Sequence record: MH051335.1
DNA length: 64,000 bases
Strand: one strand, 5' to 3'
From: Escherichia phage vB_EcoM-Ro157lw
Position 1 is the stretch's first letter; the number at the start of each line of letters is the position of its first letter. This document shows, piece by piece, positions 9,247 to 17,665 of the stretch. The notes beneath the pieces are model-generated. The model was not told the origin of the DNA and did no database searches. It was given only the letters and a program-made list of their open reading frames with translations. The translations under genes and the position numbers were made by a program.

Positions 9247-10707
9247 ATGAATAAAATATTAACACATAATTGGAAAGTCATGTACCAGTTGAATCCTGCT
9301 TTAAGAGAAGTCTGGAAGACGAAAGCGCGATACAAAGTCATATACGGCGGTCGTGCATCTTCCAAATCGCACGATGCCGCTGGTTTTGCTATTTATTTGG
9401 CGGCAAACTTCAAATTAAAATTCCTTTGCGTTCGACAATTCCAGAACAAGATTTCTGAATCAGTATATACGCTATTAAAAGATAAAATAGAGATTTCTGA
9501 TTTTAAAGACGAGTTCAACTTATTAAAGAACTCTATTGAACACAAAAGAACAAAATCTGAATTTTTATTTTACGGTATCGCACGCAACGTTGACGAAATC
9601 AAATCAACAGAAGGTGTTGATGTTCTTTGGCTTGAAGAAGCGCATGCACTGACTGAAGAGCAATGGGACATCATTGAGCCGACAATTCGTAAGGAAGGGT
9701 CCGAAATATGGATCATATTTAACCCTGATGAAGAGGCTGATTTTGTCTACCAGAACTTTGTCATGCGACCGCCGAAGAATGCCATCGTTAAGAAGATTAA
9801 CTGGCAGGACAACCCATTCTTGTCGCAAACAATGCTGGATGTTATAGCTGGCATGTATGAGCGCGACCCGAAAAAGGCAGAACACGTTTATGGCGGAGTA
9901 CCGAAGACTGGCGGCGACAAGTCGGTCATCAACCGTGCATTTGTCAAGGCCGCGCTAAACCTCCACAAACACCCTACGCTGGGGTGGAGCTTGTCAGGGT
10001 CTAACCGTATAGGCTTCGACGTGGCGGACGACGGCGACGACTTAAACGCCACAGCGTTTGTCACAGGCAACGTATTACGTGGCATCAAGACATGGGAAGG
10101 TCTGGAAGATGAATTGCTTAAGTCCGCAAGCGGAGTTTGGAAAGACGCATTGACATTCGGCGCATCAATCACCTATGACGCCATCGGTGTTGGTGCATTT
10201 GCTGGTTCAAAATTTGATGAGCTTAATGAGTATGCAATCCATGAAAATCCAACATTCCCAAGAATCGAATTTAATGCGTTCAACGCGCAAGGTGCTGTTG
10301 ATGATCCTGATGACGTTTTCCTTGAGTTACCACACGTTGAAATACTCAATAAAGACCATTTCGCAAACATAAAAGCGCAAAAATGGACTGAGATTGCCGA
10401 ACGATTCAGAAAGACATATGAGTATGCGACAGGGCAAGCCGTATATCCGACCGATGAGTTGATTTCCATCGACACAGACGGCATCCCAGAACTTGGTATT
10501 CCCGCTTGGTCTGCCGAAGAAATTGAGACGTTTCTTTTTGAGATGTCAGCACCGCGCAAAGACACGTCTGTTCTTGGTAAGTTCAAAGTTGAATCGAAAA
10601 AAGATATGGCAAAGCGTGGAGTCAAATCGCCTAACAAAGCGGACGCAGCAATCATGGCATTGATGAAACCAATTGTTGCAGCATCCGGCTTCTTCTCTAA
10701 CCTTTAA
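9247..10707 (+). CDS. terL: terminase large subunit
   Basis: Deviant Walker A GGRASSKS, Walker B VDVLWLEEA; position ahead of portal. Confidence 0.8.
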   Translation: MNKILTHNWKVMYQLNPALREVWKTKARYKVIYGGRASSKSHDAAGFAIYLAANFKLKFLCVRQFQNKISESVYTLLKDKIEISDFKDEFNLLKNSIEHKRTKSEFLFYGIARNVDEIKSTEGVDVLWLEEAHALTEEQWDIIEPTIRKEGSEIWIIFNPDEEADFVYQNFVMRPPKNAIVKKINWQDNPFLSQTMLDVIAGMYERDPKKAEHVYGGVPKTGGDKSVINRAFVKAALNLHKHPTLGWSLSGSNRIGFDVADDGDDLNATAFVTGNVLRGIKTWEGLEDELLKSASGVWKDALTFGASITYDAIGVGAFAGSKFDELNEYAIHENPTFPRIEFNAFNAQGAVDDPDDVFLELPHVEILNKDHFANIKAQKWTEIAERFRKTYEYATGQAVYPTDELISIDTDGIPELGIPAWSAEEIETFLFEMSAPRKDTSVLGKFKVESKKDMAKRGVKSPNKADAAIMALMKPIVAASGFFSNL

Positions 10708-10710
10708 CAA

Positions 10711-10950
10711 TTAAAGCATTCCGTGCTGAAGGTCGAGCTTTCTTGCGGCAAACGACCTGGCACGGAATCGCTTACCCGCCCTTACTGCCTGTCGAATTTT
10801 CTTTTGCAAACACTTACGGTCAAAATCGTTGCGGTCGACGGCTTCGAGTAAATCGCGACGCAGTGCACCCAGTGTCGACTTATCGGAGACTTCGACGCCG
10901 AGCGCGGCTGCAACATCTTTCAAAACATCGAGTTCGGTTAAAGTTCTCAT
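10711..10950 (-). CDS. hypothetical protein with Rho-N/SAP-like N-terminus and basic tail
   Basis: ORF track; motif LTELDVLKDVAAALGV; AAGGGG SD. Confidence 0.5.
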   Translation of the reverse strand: MRTLTELDVLKDVAAALGVEVSDKSTLGALRRDLLEAVDRNDFDRKCLQKKIRQAVRAGKRFRARSFAARKLDLQHGML

Positions 10951-11363
10951 TTAATAATCCCCTTGATGTCTGATTCTGCCATGAAGATTGGAGTGCCGCC
11001 GCCAGGAACAATCGAGCGCGTAACTTTGTCAAACATATCGTTTTCTTCAACTTGAATACGATAAAATTTATTTTTGGATGAAGATGGGCACAATCCCATA
11101 AATTTGCCGATTCCGCGAACGCATTCATCTTCAAAGTATACTGTTTCACCTTGAATGGAGTCGATATTGTCTACTGGATAGACTTTGCGACCCAACAACC
11201 ACTCATCCAAAGTCGCCTGCAAGACGTTTCGCGCATCTAAAATCCACGGGTCAATAGTAGCACCTTCGTATCGCGCAGCAGTGGCCTTTGCCAGTTCTTC
11301 ATATTCGCATACGTTAACGACTTCGCCGTTGTGTAGGACGACAAATACAATTGTTGTGCTCAT
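10947..11363 (-). CDS. hypothetical protein
   Basis: ORF track; AGGAG SD; 4-bp overlap with downstream gene. Confidence 0.55.
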   Translation of the reverse strand: MSTTIVFVVLHNGEVVNVCEYEELAKATAARYEGATIDPWILDARNVLQATLDEWLLGRKVYPVDNIDSIQGETVYFEDECVRGIGKFMGLCPSSSKNKFYRIQVEENDMFDKVTRSIVPGGGTPIFMAESDIKGIIK

Positions 11364-11487: not shown

Positions 11488-11525
11488 ATAGATTGATTCC
11501 CTTTCACTGTCAGGTGGCGTTAACA

Positions 11526-13901
11526 ATGAAAATTCTTGGCATAAAACTCTGGGAGAAGACGCAACCAGAAGCCGAACCAGCGGAGATGCCGCCAGGCGAC
11601 CCATTGGCACCGTTTGAACGCCTTGAAAGGCGCGGCAGCGGTCAACGCTGGGAAAAGACTGAAAGCAATCGACCGACCTTTAAAACGGTTGATGACTTCC
11701 CTTTATATGAGCCTGATATTAATGGCGATGGTGTTGCAATCATAAAAGGTCGTTCAGTCGATTCCGCAACAGTATCCAAAAAGGTTATGGATAATGCCTT
11801 AAAGAACATCAGTTCAGAAGGGCAAGTCAACCCATACACAGTACCTATTCAACTTCAAAACTGGTATTTGTCACAGTCATTCATCGGCTATCAAGCTTGC
11901 GCAATTATAGCGCAGCACTGGCTGGTGAACAAGGCTTGTTCCATGGTAGGCCGCGATGCGGTCCGTAAAGGCTGGGAAGTTAAATCCAGTTCTGAGTCAG
12001 AATTGTCAGTACAAGCCAGCGAACGCCTAAAGCAAATTGATAAAGAATTTAATATCAAAGAGCACTTAGTTGAAGCCGAACGATTCAAAAATATTTTTGG
12101 TATCCGCGTCATCATATTTGATGTGCGTAGCGATGACCCAGAATATTACAGCAAGCCTTTTAACATTGATGGTGTGACAAAGGGGTCTTATAAGGGAATC
12201 ATTCAGGTTGACCCTTATTGGATGATGCCATTTTTGACGTCTGAAAACACCGCCGACCCTGCATCACAGCACTTCTATGATCCAGAATACTGGGTGATCA
12301 GTGGACAACGTTATCATCGAAGTCACCTCATCATCTTGCGCAATGATGAGCCAGCTGATATTCTCAAGCCAACTTATATTTACGGCGGCATTCCTCTGAC
12401 TCAGCAGATTTATGAACGCATCTATGCCGCTGAACGTACCGCTAACGAAGCGCCATTGCTGGCGATGTCCAAGCGTACAACCACGCTGCGGACCGACGTT
12501 GACAAGGCTATTGCCAATGAGCGGTCTTTTGCAGAACGTCTGATGATGTGGATCAAGTACCGCGACAACTATGCAGTCAAAGTGCTTGGCCAAAAAGAAG
12601 AGATGGACCAGTTTGACATCAACTTGTCAGACTTCGACAGCATCATCATGAACCAGTACCAGCTTGTGGCCGCAATCGCAAAAGTTCCGTCGACCAAACT
12701 GCTTGGGACTTCGCCAAAAGGCTTTAACGCCACTGGTGAATTCGAGATGGTCAGCTATCACGAAGAGTTGGAAACGTGCCAGCAGCATGACCTGACAAAA
12801 ATTCTCGACCGCCATTACAAAATCCTTCTCAAATCAGAAGGGGTGGATGTCGATGTTAAGGTTGCATGGGAACCAGTTGGCTCACTTACTGCTACTCAAC
12901 TTGCAGAAATCAATGATAAGCGAGCCAACACTGGCAAAACTCTTATTGATGCTGGCGTCATTTCTCCTGATGAAGAGCGCGACCGCATCAAAGACGACAA
13001 AAACAGCGGCTACAACCGTCTGCCGGAAGACGCAGCAGAAGAAACCCCAGGGATGTCTCCAGAGAATATGGCATTGCTTGGCAAGTCTGCTGGTGAAGTC
13101 CTGCAAGGTAAGGCCGATATTGAACAGGCGAAAGCTGATGTCGTTAAGATGGGCGGCCAGTTCTATAGCGAAACAGGTATTATGCCAGAGGGTGCCGCGC
13201 GTGGTGAGTTGGCGGAAAACCCTGACAAGGCGCCTGTCGAAATCAACATGGACGATACCGATGATGAATCAAGCCATCAGGTTGATGTCCTAACGCAGTT
13301 GAAAGAAGGGCTGGAGGGTATTGCGGATTACTACCTGAAAGAAGGTCAGGATGTGGATTTTGACCCTCAAAAAGATTCACGGTCGGTGCAACCGTCTACC
13401 CTTCCAAGCGTTAAAGGACACGTCGTCAACTTACGCCACAACGTGGGTAAAATGGACGCAGCATCATTACCTAAGATGAAGTTGCACGGAATGATTCTTG
13501 GCATTGAGAATCCGCGAAACAGCATTCGTAGAGGAAACAGCCTTGACGGTGAATGGGCCGTGAAGATGCCGCACCACTACGGATTCATCAAGGGCACCAA
13601 GGGCGCAGACGGTGATGAAGTCGACTGCTTTGTGGGTCCAAATCTGAAGTCGCCGAAAGTCTTTATCGTGAACCAAAACGATAACTACTCTGGCGAGTTT
13701 GATGAACACAAGTGTATGCTTGGATTCGATTCAGCAGAAGAAGCGAAAGAAGCTTATCAAGCATCATTTGGTAACGGTTGGAACGGATTCGACTCAATCC
13801 ACGAATTAGATGTGAACTCATTCAAGGAGTGGTTGAAGGGTGATTGCTCTCAAGCATACGGAGCACTCAATAATCCTACTAATTCACCGAAGCAAGGTTG
13901 A
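11526..13901 (+). CDS. portal protein with ~250-aa C-terminal extension
   Basis: Position between terminase and MuF-like gene; portal-like N-terminal two-thirds; ATG at 11526 with AGGTGG SD (track extends to TTG 11493). Confidence 0.65.
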   Translation: MKILGIKLWEKTQPEAEPAEMPPGDPLAPFERLERRGSGQRWEKTESNRPTFKTVDDFPLYEPDINGDGVAIIKGRSVDSATVSKKVMDNALKNISSEGQVNPYTVPIQLQNWYLSQSFIGYQACAIIAQHWLVNKACSMVGRDAVRKGWEVKSSSESELSVQASERLKQIDKEFNIKEHLVEAERFKNIFGIRVIIFDVRSDDPEYYSKPFNIDGVTKGSYKGIIQVDPYWMMPFLTSENTADPASQHFYDPEYWVISGQRYHRSHLIILRNDEPADILKPTYIYGGIPLTQQIYERIYAAERTANEAPLLAMSKRTTTLRTDVDKAIANERSFAERLMMWIKYRDNYAVKVLGQKEEMDQFDINLSDFDSIIMNQYQLVAAIAKVPSTKLLGTSPKGFNATGEFEMVSYHEELETCQQHDLTKILDRHYKILLKSEGVDVDVKVAWEPVGSLTATQLAEINDKRANTGKTLIDAGVISPDEERDRIKDDKNSGYNRLPEDAAEETPGMSPENMALLGKSAGEVLQGKADIEQAKADVVKMGGQFYSETGIMPEGAARGELAENPDKAPVEINMDDTDDESSHQVDVLTQLKEGLEGIADYYLKEGQDVDFDPQKDSRSVQPSTLPSVKGHVVNLRHNVGKMDAASLPKMKLHGMILGIENPRNSIRRGNSLDGEWAVKMPHHYGFIKGTKGADGDEVDCFVGPNLKSPKVFIVNQNDNYSGEFDEHKCMLGFDSAEEAKEAYQASFGNGWNGFDSIHELDVNSFKEWLKGDCSQAYGALNNPTNSPKQG
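13476..13898 (+). other. inorganic-pyrophosphatase-like segment within the portal C-terminal extension
   Basis: KMPHHYGFIKGTKGADGDEVDCFV matches the family-I pyrophosphatase signature D-[SGDN]-D-[PE]-[LIVMF]-D-[LIVMGAC] and the preceding YPxNYGxI..T pattern (recalled, not searched). Confidence 0.4.
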
Positions 13902-13902
13902 T

Positions 13903-14754
13903 ATGGCTTTTAAAGCTTCGAAAAAACGTGAACGCCGCTCACCCGATAGAATCGGGCGCGGCAGTCCGATAATCCCATCAAACGCTATTGCGATGGCCTA
14001 CCGTCGTGAGATGAAAGGTCTTTGCTATGCGATGATTGATGACTATCAGGCAGGAATTTCAGAGTGGCTTGAAAAGAAGCAGGTGCAGAAGTTCTTTGCG
14101 CAAGACTCTGCTGATTCAACATTCCAAACTCTTATGAAACGTCTGCAGCTGAAATGGGCAAAGGCGTTTGCTCGTGTTGGGTCGAAGATTGCCGCTGATT
14201 TTATCAAGTCGGTTGAAAAGGGTGCTACTTCTGCTACATTCGCCAGCCTTAAGTCCGCAGGCATAGAAGCGCCAAAGGCCACATATAACAAATTCGTTGA
14301 GAACACTCTTAGAACAAGCGAGACGTTTAACACGACTCTAGTGACTAAGGTCGGCGAGGATATTCACAACAGAGTGTACGAAGCAGTCATGCTTTCGCTG
14401 ACTTCGCCCGACCCAGCCCAGCAAGGCACGTCAGGCATTCAGGCGGCGCTGCGAAACGTAAAACACTTCTCTGCAAAGAGAGTCGACTTAATCGCTAAAG
14501 ACCAGACAAGCAAATTGTATTGCGTTCTAAGCGATGAAAGGATGCGCCAGAATGGAGTTGAAGAATTTGAATGGGCGCACTCAGGAGCAGGAAAGGAGCC
14601 GCGAATCTCTCATGAACACGTCGACGGAATGAGATTTAAACTTGATGACAAGCGCCTATGGGAAGTTGGCGGAGAATTGAAGTTCAAAAAGGGTGACATC
14701 GGTCCTCCTGGATGGGCAATACACTGCAAGTGCAGGAAAATACCAATCATTTGA
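13903..14754 (+). CDS. head morphogenesis protein (MuF / SPP1 gp7-like)
   Basis: Position directly after portal; ATG at 13903. Confidence 0.55.
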   Translation: MAFKASKKRERRSPDRIGRGSPIIPSNAIAMAYRREMKGLCYAMIDDYQAGISEWLEKKQVQKFFAQDSADSTFQTLMKRLQLKWAKAFARVGSKIAADFIKSVEKGATSATFASLKSAGIEAPKATYNKFVENTLRTSETFNTTLVTKVGEDIHNRVYEAVMLSLTSPDPAQQGTSGIQAALRNVKHFSAKRVDLIAKDQTSKLYCVLSDERMRQNGVEEFEWAHSGAGKEPRISHEHVDGMRFKLDDKRLWEVGGELKFKKGDIGPPGWAIHCKCRKIPII

Positions 14755-14761
14755 GGTCATT

Positions 14762-15682
14762 ATGACGATACCAATCAGCACGTTTCCTATATCTGGACAA
14801 ACGCCAGTATTACCTGCTGTATATGCGAACGGTTTGGCGATTGTTTCAGAATTTACATCCGATAAAAATTTGATTGTTCCATTGAGTCCGCCATTGGCAT
14901 CTGGATACAATTCAGTCGGCCAATTCTTTATGATCGGTAATGATGGCGATTCTACCAGCAAGCCGAATCTGACACTTTCAGTTCCCAAAATGGACATAAC
15001 AGACGTGCAGACTGGTTTAACTGCATCTACAATCACCATCGCTTTTGGAGAAGCGGTGATTATAGGCATGGAGTCTGGAGGGTCCAAGAATGCTGTCGCC
15101 GTTAAGGTAGTCAAATCCAGCGGCAACCAATACACGTTACCAGCGGCAACGGCTTCTGTTCTCGGCGGCGTCAAGATAGGAAGTGGCATAAGTGTTGCAG
15201 GTGACGGTACAATTAGTGTTACTCAATACTCGTTACCGATTGCATCAGCATCAACCTTGGGTGGCGTAAAAGTAGGAACGACACTATCAATTGATGGTTC
15301 TGGCGTCCTTAATGCTGCTGCAAGCACTGTGCAGAACGCAAGCAACAGCGTAAGCAATCCTCCGACAACTCTGGTGAATCTGGCAACCTTAAACCTGCCT
15401 GCAGGGAAATGGCTTGTGACAGCAAGTCAGTTGACTGTCGCGACAGAAGGAGTTCAAGCGAATACCGGAATTACAGTAAAATTGTCAACAAGTAATTCAG
15501 ATATTACGGATGATGCATTCACGATGTCTGCTGGCATTCGGGCTGCAGGTCGTTTCGGCGGCAATATTCCAACAAAGATAATTACTCTTGCCGCGCCTGG
15601 CAACGTGTATCTAAACTATCAATGCACAGACGCATTGACATCTACCGTTTACGGACAGATCACCGCAATTAAGTTGAACTAA
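14762..15682 (+). CDS. fiber-like protein with tandem ~25-aa repeats
   Basis: Repeats ATASVLGGVKIGSGISVAGDGTISV / ASASTLGGVKVGTTLSIDGSGVL; ATG at 14762 with GAGGT SD. Confidence 0.55.
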   Translation: MTIPISTFPISGQTPVLPAVYANGLAIVSEFTSDKNLIVPLSPPLASGYNSVGQFFMIGNDGDSTSKPNLTLSVPKMDITDVQTGLTASTITIAFGEAVIIGMESGGSKNAVAVKVVKSSGNQYTLPAATASVLGGVKIGSGISVAGDGTISVTQYSLPIASASTLGGVKVGTTLSIDGSGVLNAAASTVQNASNSVSNPPTTLVNLATLNLPAGKWLVTASQLTVATEGVQANTGITVKLSTSNSDITDDAFTMSAGIRAAGRFGGNIPTKIITLAAPGNVYLNYQCTDALTSTVYGQITAIKLN

Positions 15683-16246: not shown

Positions 16247-17665
16247 ATGCGAATGCAAACGGCACGCGAAATTGACAAAAATGGATTCTTGACGATTGTG
16301 GGTTGTCCCATTTCGTCATTTGGCATTTTTGATTATTCTGCAGGTCAGGTTGGACTTGATGGTGATCCGAATCGCATCGTAAAAGTTTATCGCCCAGAGT
16401 CAGCGGTGAAAGACCCCGAAGCGATAGATTCATTCAAAAATATCCCTTTCATCGACAATCACGAAATGCTTTCTGGATTCGAAGGTGATGAGGATAACAC
16501 AGCACCCGAAGAGTATGGCGTTGATGGCGTTCTGACTGGCAATGTTTATTATGACAAGCCATGGATGCGCGGCGACCTTAAAGTTTTTAGCCGTCGTCTG
16601 AAGAAGGCCATCGATTCTGGAAAGGTTGACTTGTCTTTGGGCTATGACTGTGAATTCATCATACAGTCTGGAGAGTTTGACGGGCAGCCGTATGAAGTGG
16701 TACAGACAACTCTTCGCGGCAACCACATTGCTCTCGTGGACGTTGGTCGAGTACCAGGTGCACGGGTGCTGGATGGTCGTTGCTTTGACCATCTTTGTTT
16801 GACGACTGTAACACCATCCAACGAGGATTTAGACATGCCAAAACCGTTAAAAGGTAAAGCGCGTGATAATGCTGTTGAACAGCTGAAATCACTGATCCCT
16901 GCGCTCGAACAATTTCTGAATGAAGAGAGCACCGAAGCTGCTCATCAGGACGAAGTTGAAGTGAAAGCAGAAGAGAAGGATTCAACCGAAGAACGTGAAG
17001 AAGTGATGGTTGATCCAGAAGTCAAAGCAGAAGCTGAAGAGACTCCAGAAGGTGAAGAGAAGTTTGAAGTTGAAACTGAATCTCACGCTGGCGGCGAGCT
17101 TCCGCAACTGATCAGCCAAATCGAAGCACTTATTGCAAAACTGAAAGGTGGCGCGGTAGGTGATGAAGAAGAAGTTGAAGCCGAAGTCAAAGACGAAGAA
17201 GTTGAAGTCAAGGCTGAAGATGTATCACCTTGCGACAAAGCTGAAGATGTGGTTAGCGGCCTGCAAAACAGCAACGTAAAGGGGGCTTCGGTCGAAAAAG
17301 ATGACAAACCGACAAAAGCGGCGAAAGCGTCGCCAGGTCCAGCAAAAGGGGAACACTCAATGGCATCTGATTCAGCAGTTGCTGCTTTCTACGCTGATTC
17401 TGCTCGTAAGAATAGCCTCTACCAGCGCCTGTCTAAAGTTGTTGGTGCCTTTGATCATGCAACTATGGACTCCAAGTCCGTAGCGAAATATGGCGCTAAA
17501 AAGTTAGGCTTGAAGTGCGTTGATGGTGCTGAGTTTGACGTGGTGGATAATTATCTGCGCGGCGTTGAACACGGTCAAAAACAGCGTGTAGTCGCAAAAC
17601 AAAAGGCCGCTGCGGATTCTGCAGCAACTGACGAAGCATTTGAAGCTTGGTTGAAAGGGGAATAA
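16247..17665 (+). CDS. capsid scaffolding protein (N-terminal domain possibly prohead-protease-like; acidic central region)
   Basis: Position before capsid gene; E-rich low-complexity centre. Confidence 0.5.
   Translation: MRMQTAREIDKNGFLTIVGCPISSFGIFDYSAGQVGLDGDPNRIVKVYRPESAVKDPEAIDSFKNIPFIDNHEMLSGFEGDEDNTAPEEYGVDGVLTGNVYYDKPWMRGDLKVFSRRLKKAIDSGKVDLSLGYDCEFIIQSGEFDGQPYEVVQTTLRGNHIALVDVGRVPGARVLDGRCFDHLCLTTVTPSNEDLDMPKPLKGKARDNAVEQLKSLIPALEQFLNEESTEAAHQDEVEVKAEEKDSTEEREEVMVDPEVKAEAEETPEGEEKFEVETESHAGGELPQLISQIEALIAKLKGGAVGDEEEVEAEVKDEEVEVKAEDVSPCDKAEDVVSGLQNSNVKGASVEKDDKPTKAAKASPGPAKGEHSMASDSAVAAFYADSARKNSLYQRLSKVVGAFDHATMDSKSVAKYGAKKLGLKCVDGAEFDVVDNYLRGVEHGQKQRVVAKQKAAADSAATDEAFEAWLKGE

Follow-up and report, generated by a model that had tools for sequence, protein, structure and literature searches.

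The 64,000-nucleotide stretch of Escherichia phage vB_EcoM-Ro157lw analyzed here (sequence record MH051335.1; in what follows, the window) encodes, between its terminase and head-morphogenesis genes, a 791-residue portal protein whose C-terminal part is a compact pyrophosphatase domain, family-I-like and belonging to the InPase clade, which is attached through some 100 residues of flexible, acidic linker (Table 1). The gene begins with an ATG at 11526, with AGGTGG 8 nucleotides upstream, ends with a TGA at 13899-13901, and specifies a product of the same length as that annotated in phage Bas99; a TTG at 11493, which would give 802 residues, is another possible start. An earlier sequence-only reading of this DNA had noted that the frame extends some 250 residues beyond typical portals, and this holds: the Pfam portal match ends at residue 468, and the models of the homologous gp19 proteins of phages E217 and Pa193 end at residue 528 of 765. 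The match to PHROG 4660 spans residues 16-777 (E=0); by this family-level match, which covers the whole protein, the portal-InPase architecture is an established phage protein family in its own right.

By sequence identity the window belongs to the genus Wifcevirus: the region shares 99.1% identity with Escherichia phage vB_EcoM_WFH and 90-99% with a further 27 Wifcevirus records, which label the gene variously as 'portal protein', 'minor head protein', or 'hypothetical protein'. When compared with five homologs, both the portal core (residues 107-498; 57-67% identity) and the InPase domain (residues 640-771; 48-65% identity) show almost no indels, and they are set among variable N-terminal, linker, and C-terminal segments (Table 1), with the linker region (residues 542-648) bearing a net charge of -12. 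As judged from these alignments, an enzyme-like module that is conserved hangs on a tether that varies. A free InPase produced from an internal start was considered and dropped, Met643, Met651, and Met656 each being without a convincing Shine-Dalgarno sequence.

Table 1. Features of the portal-InPase locus; coordinates are those of the window and residue numbers those of the 791-residue protein.
Feature	Coordinates	Strand	Basis or remark
Terminase large subunit	9247..10707	+	PF04466, E 3e-37
Two small genes, no informative family match	10711-11363	-	Gap between terminase and portal genes
Portal-InPase fusion gene	11526..13901	+	791 residues plus stop; open reading frame list, sequence, PHROG 4660, Pa193 gp19 match
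Variable N-terminal region, residues 1-106	11526..11843	+	21-31% identity to homologs, indels present
Portal core, Pfam Phage_portal_3 (PF06381), residues 122-468	11889..12929	+	E 3.3e-88
Region aligned to E217/Pa193 C-terminal barrel helix, residues 499-541	13020..13148	+	Alignment to residues up to ~528-538 of the solved portals
Acidic, poorly conserved linker, residues 542-639	13149..13442	+	19-25% identity, many indels
InPase domain, residues 640-771 (Pfam match 649-771)	13443..13838	+	PF18823, AlphaFold model, conservation, peptides
DGDEVDC, exact PROSITE PS00387 signature (D695/D697/D700), residues 695-701	13608..13628	+	Translation, regular expression
Variable C-terminal tail, residues 772-791	13839..13898	+	Low predicted local distance difference test score (pLDDT); 0-32% identity to homologs
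MuF-like head morphogenesis gene	13903..14754	+	PF04233, 31.1 bits (cut-off 29.6); PHROG 324, E 8e-67
Head-fibre-like gene	14762-15682		Between MuF and protease genes; weak PF11133, 30.7 bits
DUF2213 head maturation protease, acidic C-terminal half	16247..17665	+	PF09979, E 5e-35; PHROG 3778, E 9e-173

The sequence-only reading had proposed a pyrophosphatase-like module at the end of the portal, and the profile and structure-prediction checks that it called for both bear this out. The Pfam InPase model PF18823 is recovered with 157-160 bits (cut-off 26.8; E 3e-46) and aligns over model positions 12-135 of 135. The strings on which the proposal was based are likewise present, viz., KMPHHYGFIKGTKGADGDEVDCFV at residues 680-703, which contains the signature, and AKEAYQASF at residues 740-748. 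The PS00387 pattern D-[SGDN]-D-[PE]-[LIVMF]-D-[LIVMGAC] has a single match in the protein and in the six frames of the window, and its chance expectation of 1.1e-3 per protein of like composition indicates that the match is not accidental. To relate the clade to classical enzymes, a profile of 173 diverse InPase domains was aligned with hhalign to a family-I profile built on E. coli Ppa, to which the enzymes of M. tuberculosis and yeast were added, all with sequences checked against the PDB (a search with E. coli Ppa gave, among the sequences listed, only ones at least 82% identical, which did not help to broaden the profile). This gave a probability of 94% and an E-value of 1.3e-7 over 27 columns around the signature only, with 24-27 confident columns across the comparisons of profile with single sequence and of profile with profile. 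The greedy and global versions of the alignment are of low confidence; they were used for the N-terminal glutamate alone, and the C-terminal half was treated as unreliable. The AlphaFold model of the InPase domain (pLDDT 90.9) has family-I pyrophosphatases as its top structural matches; the full-length model, made from a 6-sequence alignment, is uninformative (mean pLDDT 36). We take the order of strands and helices in the domain model to correspond one-to-one to that of the E. coli enzyme, with shorter loops, an assignment made by element order.

The same evidence disposes of the possibility that the signature arose by chance or by convergence, the latter raised in the sequence-only reading, within a portal extension of the usual kind. 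In favor of such an origin it could be said that the residues aligning confidently by sequence with classical pyrophosphatases number only about 25, but the match to the full-length InPase model, the independent fold assignment, and the low chance expectation exclude it for practical purposes. The accompanying thought that the segment is short and perhaps degenerate also falls, as this is the normal compact form of a very large family: at E<=1e-3, InPase is matched by 11,272 cluster representatives, and none of the 19 positions kept by 90% or more of 173 family members is missing from the window protein. Compared with E. coli Ppa the domain is some 50 residues shorter, and its AlphaFold model keeps a hairpin at domain residues 29-42. 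The top 147 representatives have a median length of 1095 residues, 47 of them reaching at least 2000 residues and 5 possessing a portal core; InPase is also found as standalone proteins of 130-250 residues and at varied positions in giant proteins. The best-scoring representative (P0023, 1116 residues) has two tandem InPase domains (308 bits in two stretches) and no portal core. Among isolated phages, 470 records carry the domain, of which 294 are Pseudomonas phages, including PB1 and E217 (each ~59% identical to the window domain, E217 by tblastn), and the remainder include Wifcevirus, Serratia MyoSmar, Xanthomonas XcP1, and Burkholderia and Achromobacter phages. None of the 60 matches listed from these 470 records is annotated as a pyrophosphatase. 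The extension is a conserved and ordinary part of this phage lineage.

The domain family and its fusion to portals were already described by Iyer, Burroughs, Anand, de Souza, and Aravind (J Bacteriol 2017; PMC5512222), who defined the InPase domains of phage polyvalent proteins as a monophyletic and compact offshoot of the type-I pyrophosphatases, without the extra beta-hairpin of the solved family-I enzymes, and who named BcepF1.124 as a portal-InPase fusion. The sequence-only reading knew of no described fusion of this kind; one had been described, and the finding is correct but not new. Entries for the feature exist in Pfam (PF18823) and as PHROG 4660, besides its treatment by Iyer et al., 2017, and the InPase tail goes unmentioned in the genome, proteomics, BASEL-collection, and cryo-electron microscopy (cryo-EM) papers on Wifcevirus and Pbunavirus that we examined. 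New here are the re-reading of published virion proteomics that cover the tail and the relatives with still longer tails. In the literature we found no experiment on portal pyrophosphatases and no later paper testing InPase; a match for Shigella phage DSF2 concerns an unrelated NTP pyrophosphatase.

The 19 family-wide positions are E661, R668, G670, W677, Y685, G686, D695, D697, D700, and G704 in the first part of the domain, and Q717, D726, E727, H728, K729, G733, A740, Y744, and W769 in the second; D697 is conserved in 94% of the family, not in 100%, and W677, Q717, H728, and W769 are invariant residues peculiar to InPase. We compared these with the active-site set E20, K29, E31, R43, Y51, Y55, D65, D67, D70, D97, D102, K104, Y141, and K142 of E. 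coli Ppa. Within the confident hhalign block, Y55 corresponds to Y685 and the metal-binding aspartates D65, D67, and D70 to D695, D697, and D700. Going by the low-confidence alignment, the order of structural elements, and the E. coli structure, E20 would correspond to E661, K29 to R668, D102 to E727 (or D726), and K104 to K729, and, by the order of elements only, Y141 possibly to Y744; R43 would fall at K680, a position not conserved in the InPase family. Set beside the E. coli enzyme, this pattern suggests that the domain retains its metal site and attacked-phosphate site, together with a leaving-group site that has diverged. Given that the acidic metal-binding cluster and the conserved glutamate, lysine, and tyrosine are retained, the domain is most likely an active divalent-metal-dependent hydrolase, and we regard catalytic activity as reasonably probable. 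The diverged leaving-group site would fit a substrate other than plain pyrophosphate (PPi), and in this the domain would agree with the nucleotide-like substrate proposed by Iyer et al., 2017 (PMC5512222).

The prediction that the module is packaged in the virion could be examined in published proteomics, namely the liquid chromatography-tandem mass spectrometry of caesium chloride (CsCl)-purified phages vB_Eco4M-7 and ECML-117 (Necel et al., 2020; PMC7048862), which are 97-98% identical to the window in the portal region. Our re-reading of the supplementary tables yielded 22 ECML-117 portal peptides, every one of which is exact on the window protein and recurs in the vB_Eco4M-7 table; being fully tryptic, they do not distinguish an attached from a cleaved tail. 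In ECML-117 the peptides cover 74% of the linker region (residues 513-648), 54% of the InPase domain (residues 649-771; 215 of 288 spectra), and 90% of the C-terminal tail (residues 772-791), the last by way of GDCSQAYGALNNPTNSPK (residues 772-789). The presence of linker, InPase, and C-terminal peptides in purified virions shows that the extension is retained there to its end, as had been foreseen. The ECML-117 spectra are strongly skewed toward the tail, with 215 from InPase as against 14 from the portal core and 179 from MPHHYGFIK alone (supplementary file 4 of PMC7048862); a flexible tail may be easier to digest than the portal ring. The same virions gave N-terminal portal peptides at residues 12-32 and 45-53 (window 11559-11684); according to the Pa193 paper, mass spectrometry did not detect the first 93 residues of gp19, which might be cleaved.

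As to where the tail lies, the cryo-EM papers on E217 and Pa193 model gp19 over residues 94/97-528 of 765 and describe, at its C-terminal end, a short barrel (about 30 residues) projecting into the head, which in E217 unfolds after ejection. The Pa193 paper records no density for residues 529-765, and the equivalent tail is invisible in both pre- and post-ejection maps; neither paper mentions a pyrophosphatase. As the portal is a dodecamer whose barrel points into the head in these phages, twelve InPase copies would lie inside the capsid near the portal axis. By analogy with these structures, the linker and InPase must be inside the capsid, twelve per virion and disordered relative to the imposed symmetry. 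By our calculation this amounts to ~27 kDa per portal subunit and ~320 kDa per virion that are unaccounted for in published virion structures.

We favor, with a probability of roughly 0.5, an account in which InPase is a portal-tethered, capsid-internal, and probably active pyrophosphate-bond hydrolase that serves as a packaged effector of early infection. Its predicted target is a pyrophosphate bond, be it that of PPi itself or one within a nucleotide-like compound. The domain would be freed from its tether, probably by a head protease, for which the DUF2213 head maturation protease encoded downstream is the candidate; it would then leave with the DNA and act at the very start of infection, where it is predicted to clear inhibitory PPi or to destroy a host nucleotide signal. 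This is in line with the proposal of Iyer et al., 2017 (PMC5512222) that InPase domains are injected and degrade infection-induced nucleotides or clear PPi. Speaking for an effector is the occurrence of the domain mostly in giant phage polyvalent proteins. Release from the portal and delivery into the host form the weaker part of the account, to which we give somewhat worse than even odds. The extended linker of ~100 residues would reach ~350-400 Å by our estimate, as against a tail of ~1300 Å (Pa193 paper), so that the linker itself could not carry the domain into the cell.

Several points weigh against this account. A domain held covalently on the portal cannot leave the capsid, so cleavage is required, and here lies the weak point: no portal cleavage site or semi-tryptic peptide is known, the portal-InPase gene is without a protease domain of its own, and the tryptic peptides run unbroken from the portal core via the linker to the C-terminus, which an uncleaved protein fits equally well. 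The virion preparation contained traces of a few non-structural proteins and was not perfectly clean (PMC7048862). On the enzymatic side, the classical pyrophosphatase model PF00719 reaches only 18.0-21.4 bits, below its cut-off of 23.5, with 25 residues aligned. Of the E. coli active-site residues, Y51 appears to be lost, falling at M681 within the confident block, as does E31, which by low-confidence alignment and element order would fall at G670, and D97 and K142 have no confident equivalent in the window protein; PPi may accordingly not be the substrate. The literature yielded no experiment with any InPase domain, whether on its enzymology, its genetics, or its ejection.

The continuity of the peptides bears also on a different explanation, in which the domain is an active pyrophosphatase at work in the producing cell, where the late-made portal would hydrolyze PPi or a nucleotide to the benefit of replication, late transcription, or assembly, and its presence in the virion would be a by-product of the fusion. 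The conserved active-site-like residues and the fold fit this just as well, a tethered domain with no documented portal cleavage and continuous linker peptides is not injectable, and PPi clearance that aids replication or transcription is among the options given by Iyer et al., 2017 (PMC5512222). We nevertheless consider it unlikely: the portal copies, numbering from a few hundred to a few thousand, would contribute little in bulk beside an abundant host enzyme, and the fusion to the capsid interior, the recurrence of InPase in packaged polyvalent proteins, and the co-fusion of an ADP-ribosyltransferase in a relative point to cargo and not to housekeeping. E. coli has its own pyrophosphatase, which is both abundant and essential.

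The co-fusion just mentioned belongs to a set of relatives with longer portal tails, encoded on two metagenomic contigs (L002 and L003) with the same gene order as the window. The first, P0025 (6001-9576 of L002), is a portal-InPase-ADP-ribosyltransferase protein of 1191 residues, with PF03496 at residues 1021-1184 (E 3e-17). The second, P0029 (6001-10976 of L003, taken with the next gene), is a portal-InPase-topoisomerase IB protein of 1106 residues, with PF21338 and PF01028 (E 2e-20) of the bacterial type; between its gene and MuF, L003 encodes a separate ADP-ribosyltransferase protein of 552 residues. This gathering of effector-type domains on the portal tail favors reading it as cargo. A tentative extension, to which we attach a low probability, is that the portal C-terminus of PB1-like phages and Wifcevirus is a general cargo dock, carrying InPase alone or with an ADP-ribosyltransferase or a topoisomerase IB, with InPase as the constant element; InPase itself would perhaps serve anti-defence, destroying within the first seconds of infection some pyrophosphate-containing signal or nucleotide of the host, or would remain tethered and work inside the capsid at the portal crown. 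Either mechanism, if true, would operate in a phage group that includes therapeutic Pseudomonas phages; E217 is part of an experimental therapeutic cocktail (E217 paper). The BASEL Wifcevirus isolates Bas98-101 infect engineered E. coli K-12 and may offer a tractable host for studying InPase function.

A short motif after InPase is common to both extended tails, DFKEGDHPRAKNGQFG in P0025 and DFKESEHPRAPNGKFG in P0029 (columns ~855-875 of alignment A2). The window protein is without it, no description of it was found, and it might be a junction or processing motif. In P0029 the signature region reads GADGQDVD in place of GADGDEVD, with a glutamine at the aspartate aligned with D697, the equivalent of the E. 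coli general base D67, and an aspartate one position later.

The constancy of InPase in all three architectures, portal-InPase alone and with either additional domain, would also suit a non-catalytic module of the capsid, in which twelve OB-folds around the barrel serve as plug or spacer, sense the DNA end or the headful state, or provide a handle for cargo, with the acidic cluster binding Mg2+ or DNA phosphates. The position of the tail at the portal crown (the site of the DNA end packaged last), the unfolding of the E217 barrel after ejection, and the glutamine in P0029 are compatible with such a role. Set against these, active-site-like charged residues are kept at 94-100% across 173 diverse proteins that are mostly not portal fusions, and the standalone and variably placed InPase domains argue against a function specific to portal structure, so that we hold this to be improbable, and slightly more so than activity confined to the producing cell. 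The packaged-effector account remains the one that we prefer.

Around the portal-InPase gene the window shows a head-gene order in which the MuF-like gene starts 1 nucleotide past the portal stop codon, and the Bas99 annotation continues further downstream with a virion structural protein and the major head protein. The DUF2213 protease is the top-scoring listed virion protein of ECML-117, with 852 spectra and peptides from both its protease and acidic parts; from these peptides it appears to stay in the mature virion. The head-fibre-like gene is called 'tail fiber protein' in Bas99, perhaps wrongly; in vB_Eco4M-7 virions, peptides cover 73% of its ortholog. Between the terminase and portal genes lies a variable cassette of reverse-strand genes in the window, L002, and L003: that of L003 (2969-5986) has nine such genes, including Thy1 and DUF3846, and that of L002 (3953-5795) includes DUF2786/DUF7168 and DUF6011. 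ARAGORN found no tRNA or tmRNA genes in the window (1-64000).

Among known systems, the closest is that of Burkholderia phage BcepF1, whose gp124 (YP_001039808.1; BcepF1.124, labeled 'minor head protein' in GenBank) is 53% identical to the window protein over 800 residues, InPase tail included, and stands in the same order of terminase, small genes, portal-InPase, MuF, and then protease. It differs in its length of 862 residues, its longer C-terminal tail, and the genus of its host, and by its sequence and context it is an ortholog of the window gene product. The gp19 proteins of E217 and Pa193 (PDB 8fvh and 9b41; genus Pbunavirus) share the succession of portal core, barrel, linker, and InPase, with 838 bits for Pa193 (9b41_L, over residues 14-779) and 636 bits for E217 (8fvh) and with an InPase part about 59% identical to that of the window by tblastn, but as only residues 94/97-528 are modeled, their tail is without an experimental structure. 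The PF18823 domains of polyvalent proteins likewise combine a phage and virion-associated context with the family-conserved positions; most, however, lie within proteins of 1000-6000 residues beside many effector domains, in relation to which the window protein is a minimal two-domain version. With E. coli Ppa the window domain shares the OB-fold barrel, what we take to be the same order of strands and helices, and the exact PS00387 signature, whereas family-I Ppa enzymes have ~175 residues as against ~125, with longer loops, and are free hexamers or dimers in place of a tethered domain. Finally, the injected enzymes of the T4 Alt type (per Iyer et al., 2017; PMC5512222) resemble it as enzyme-like modules inside the head, with the difference that Alt is a separate, head-targeted, and injected protein, whereas the module described here is part of the portal polypeptide itself.

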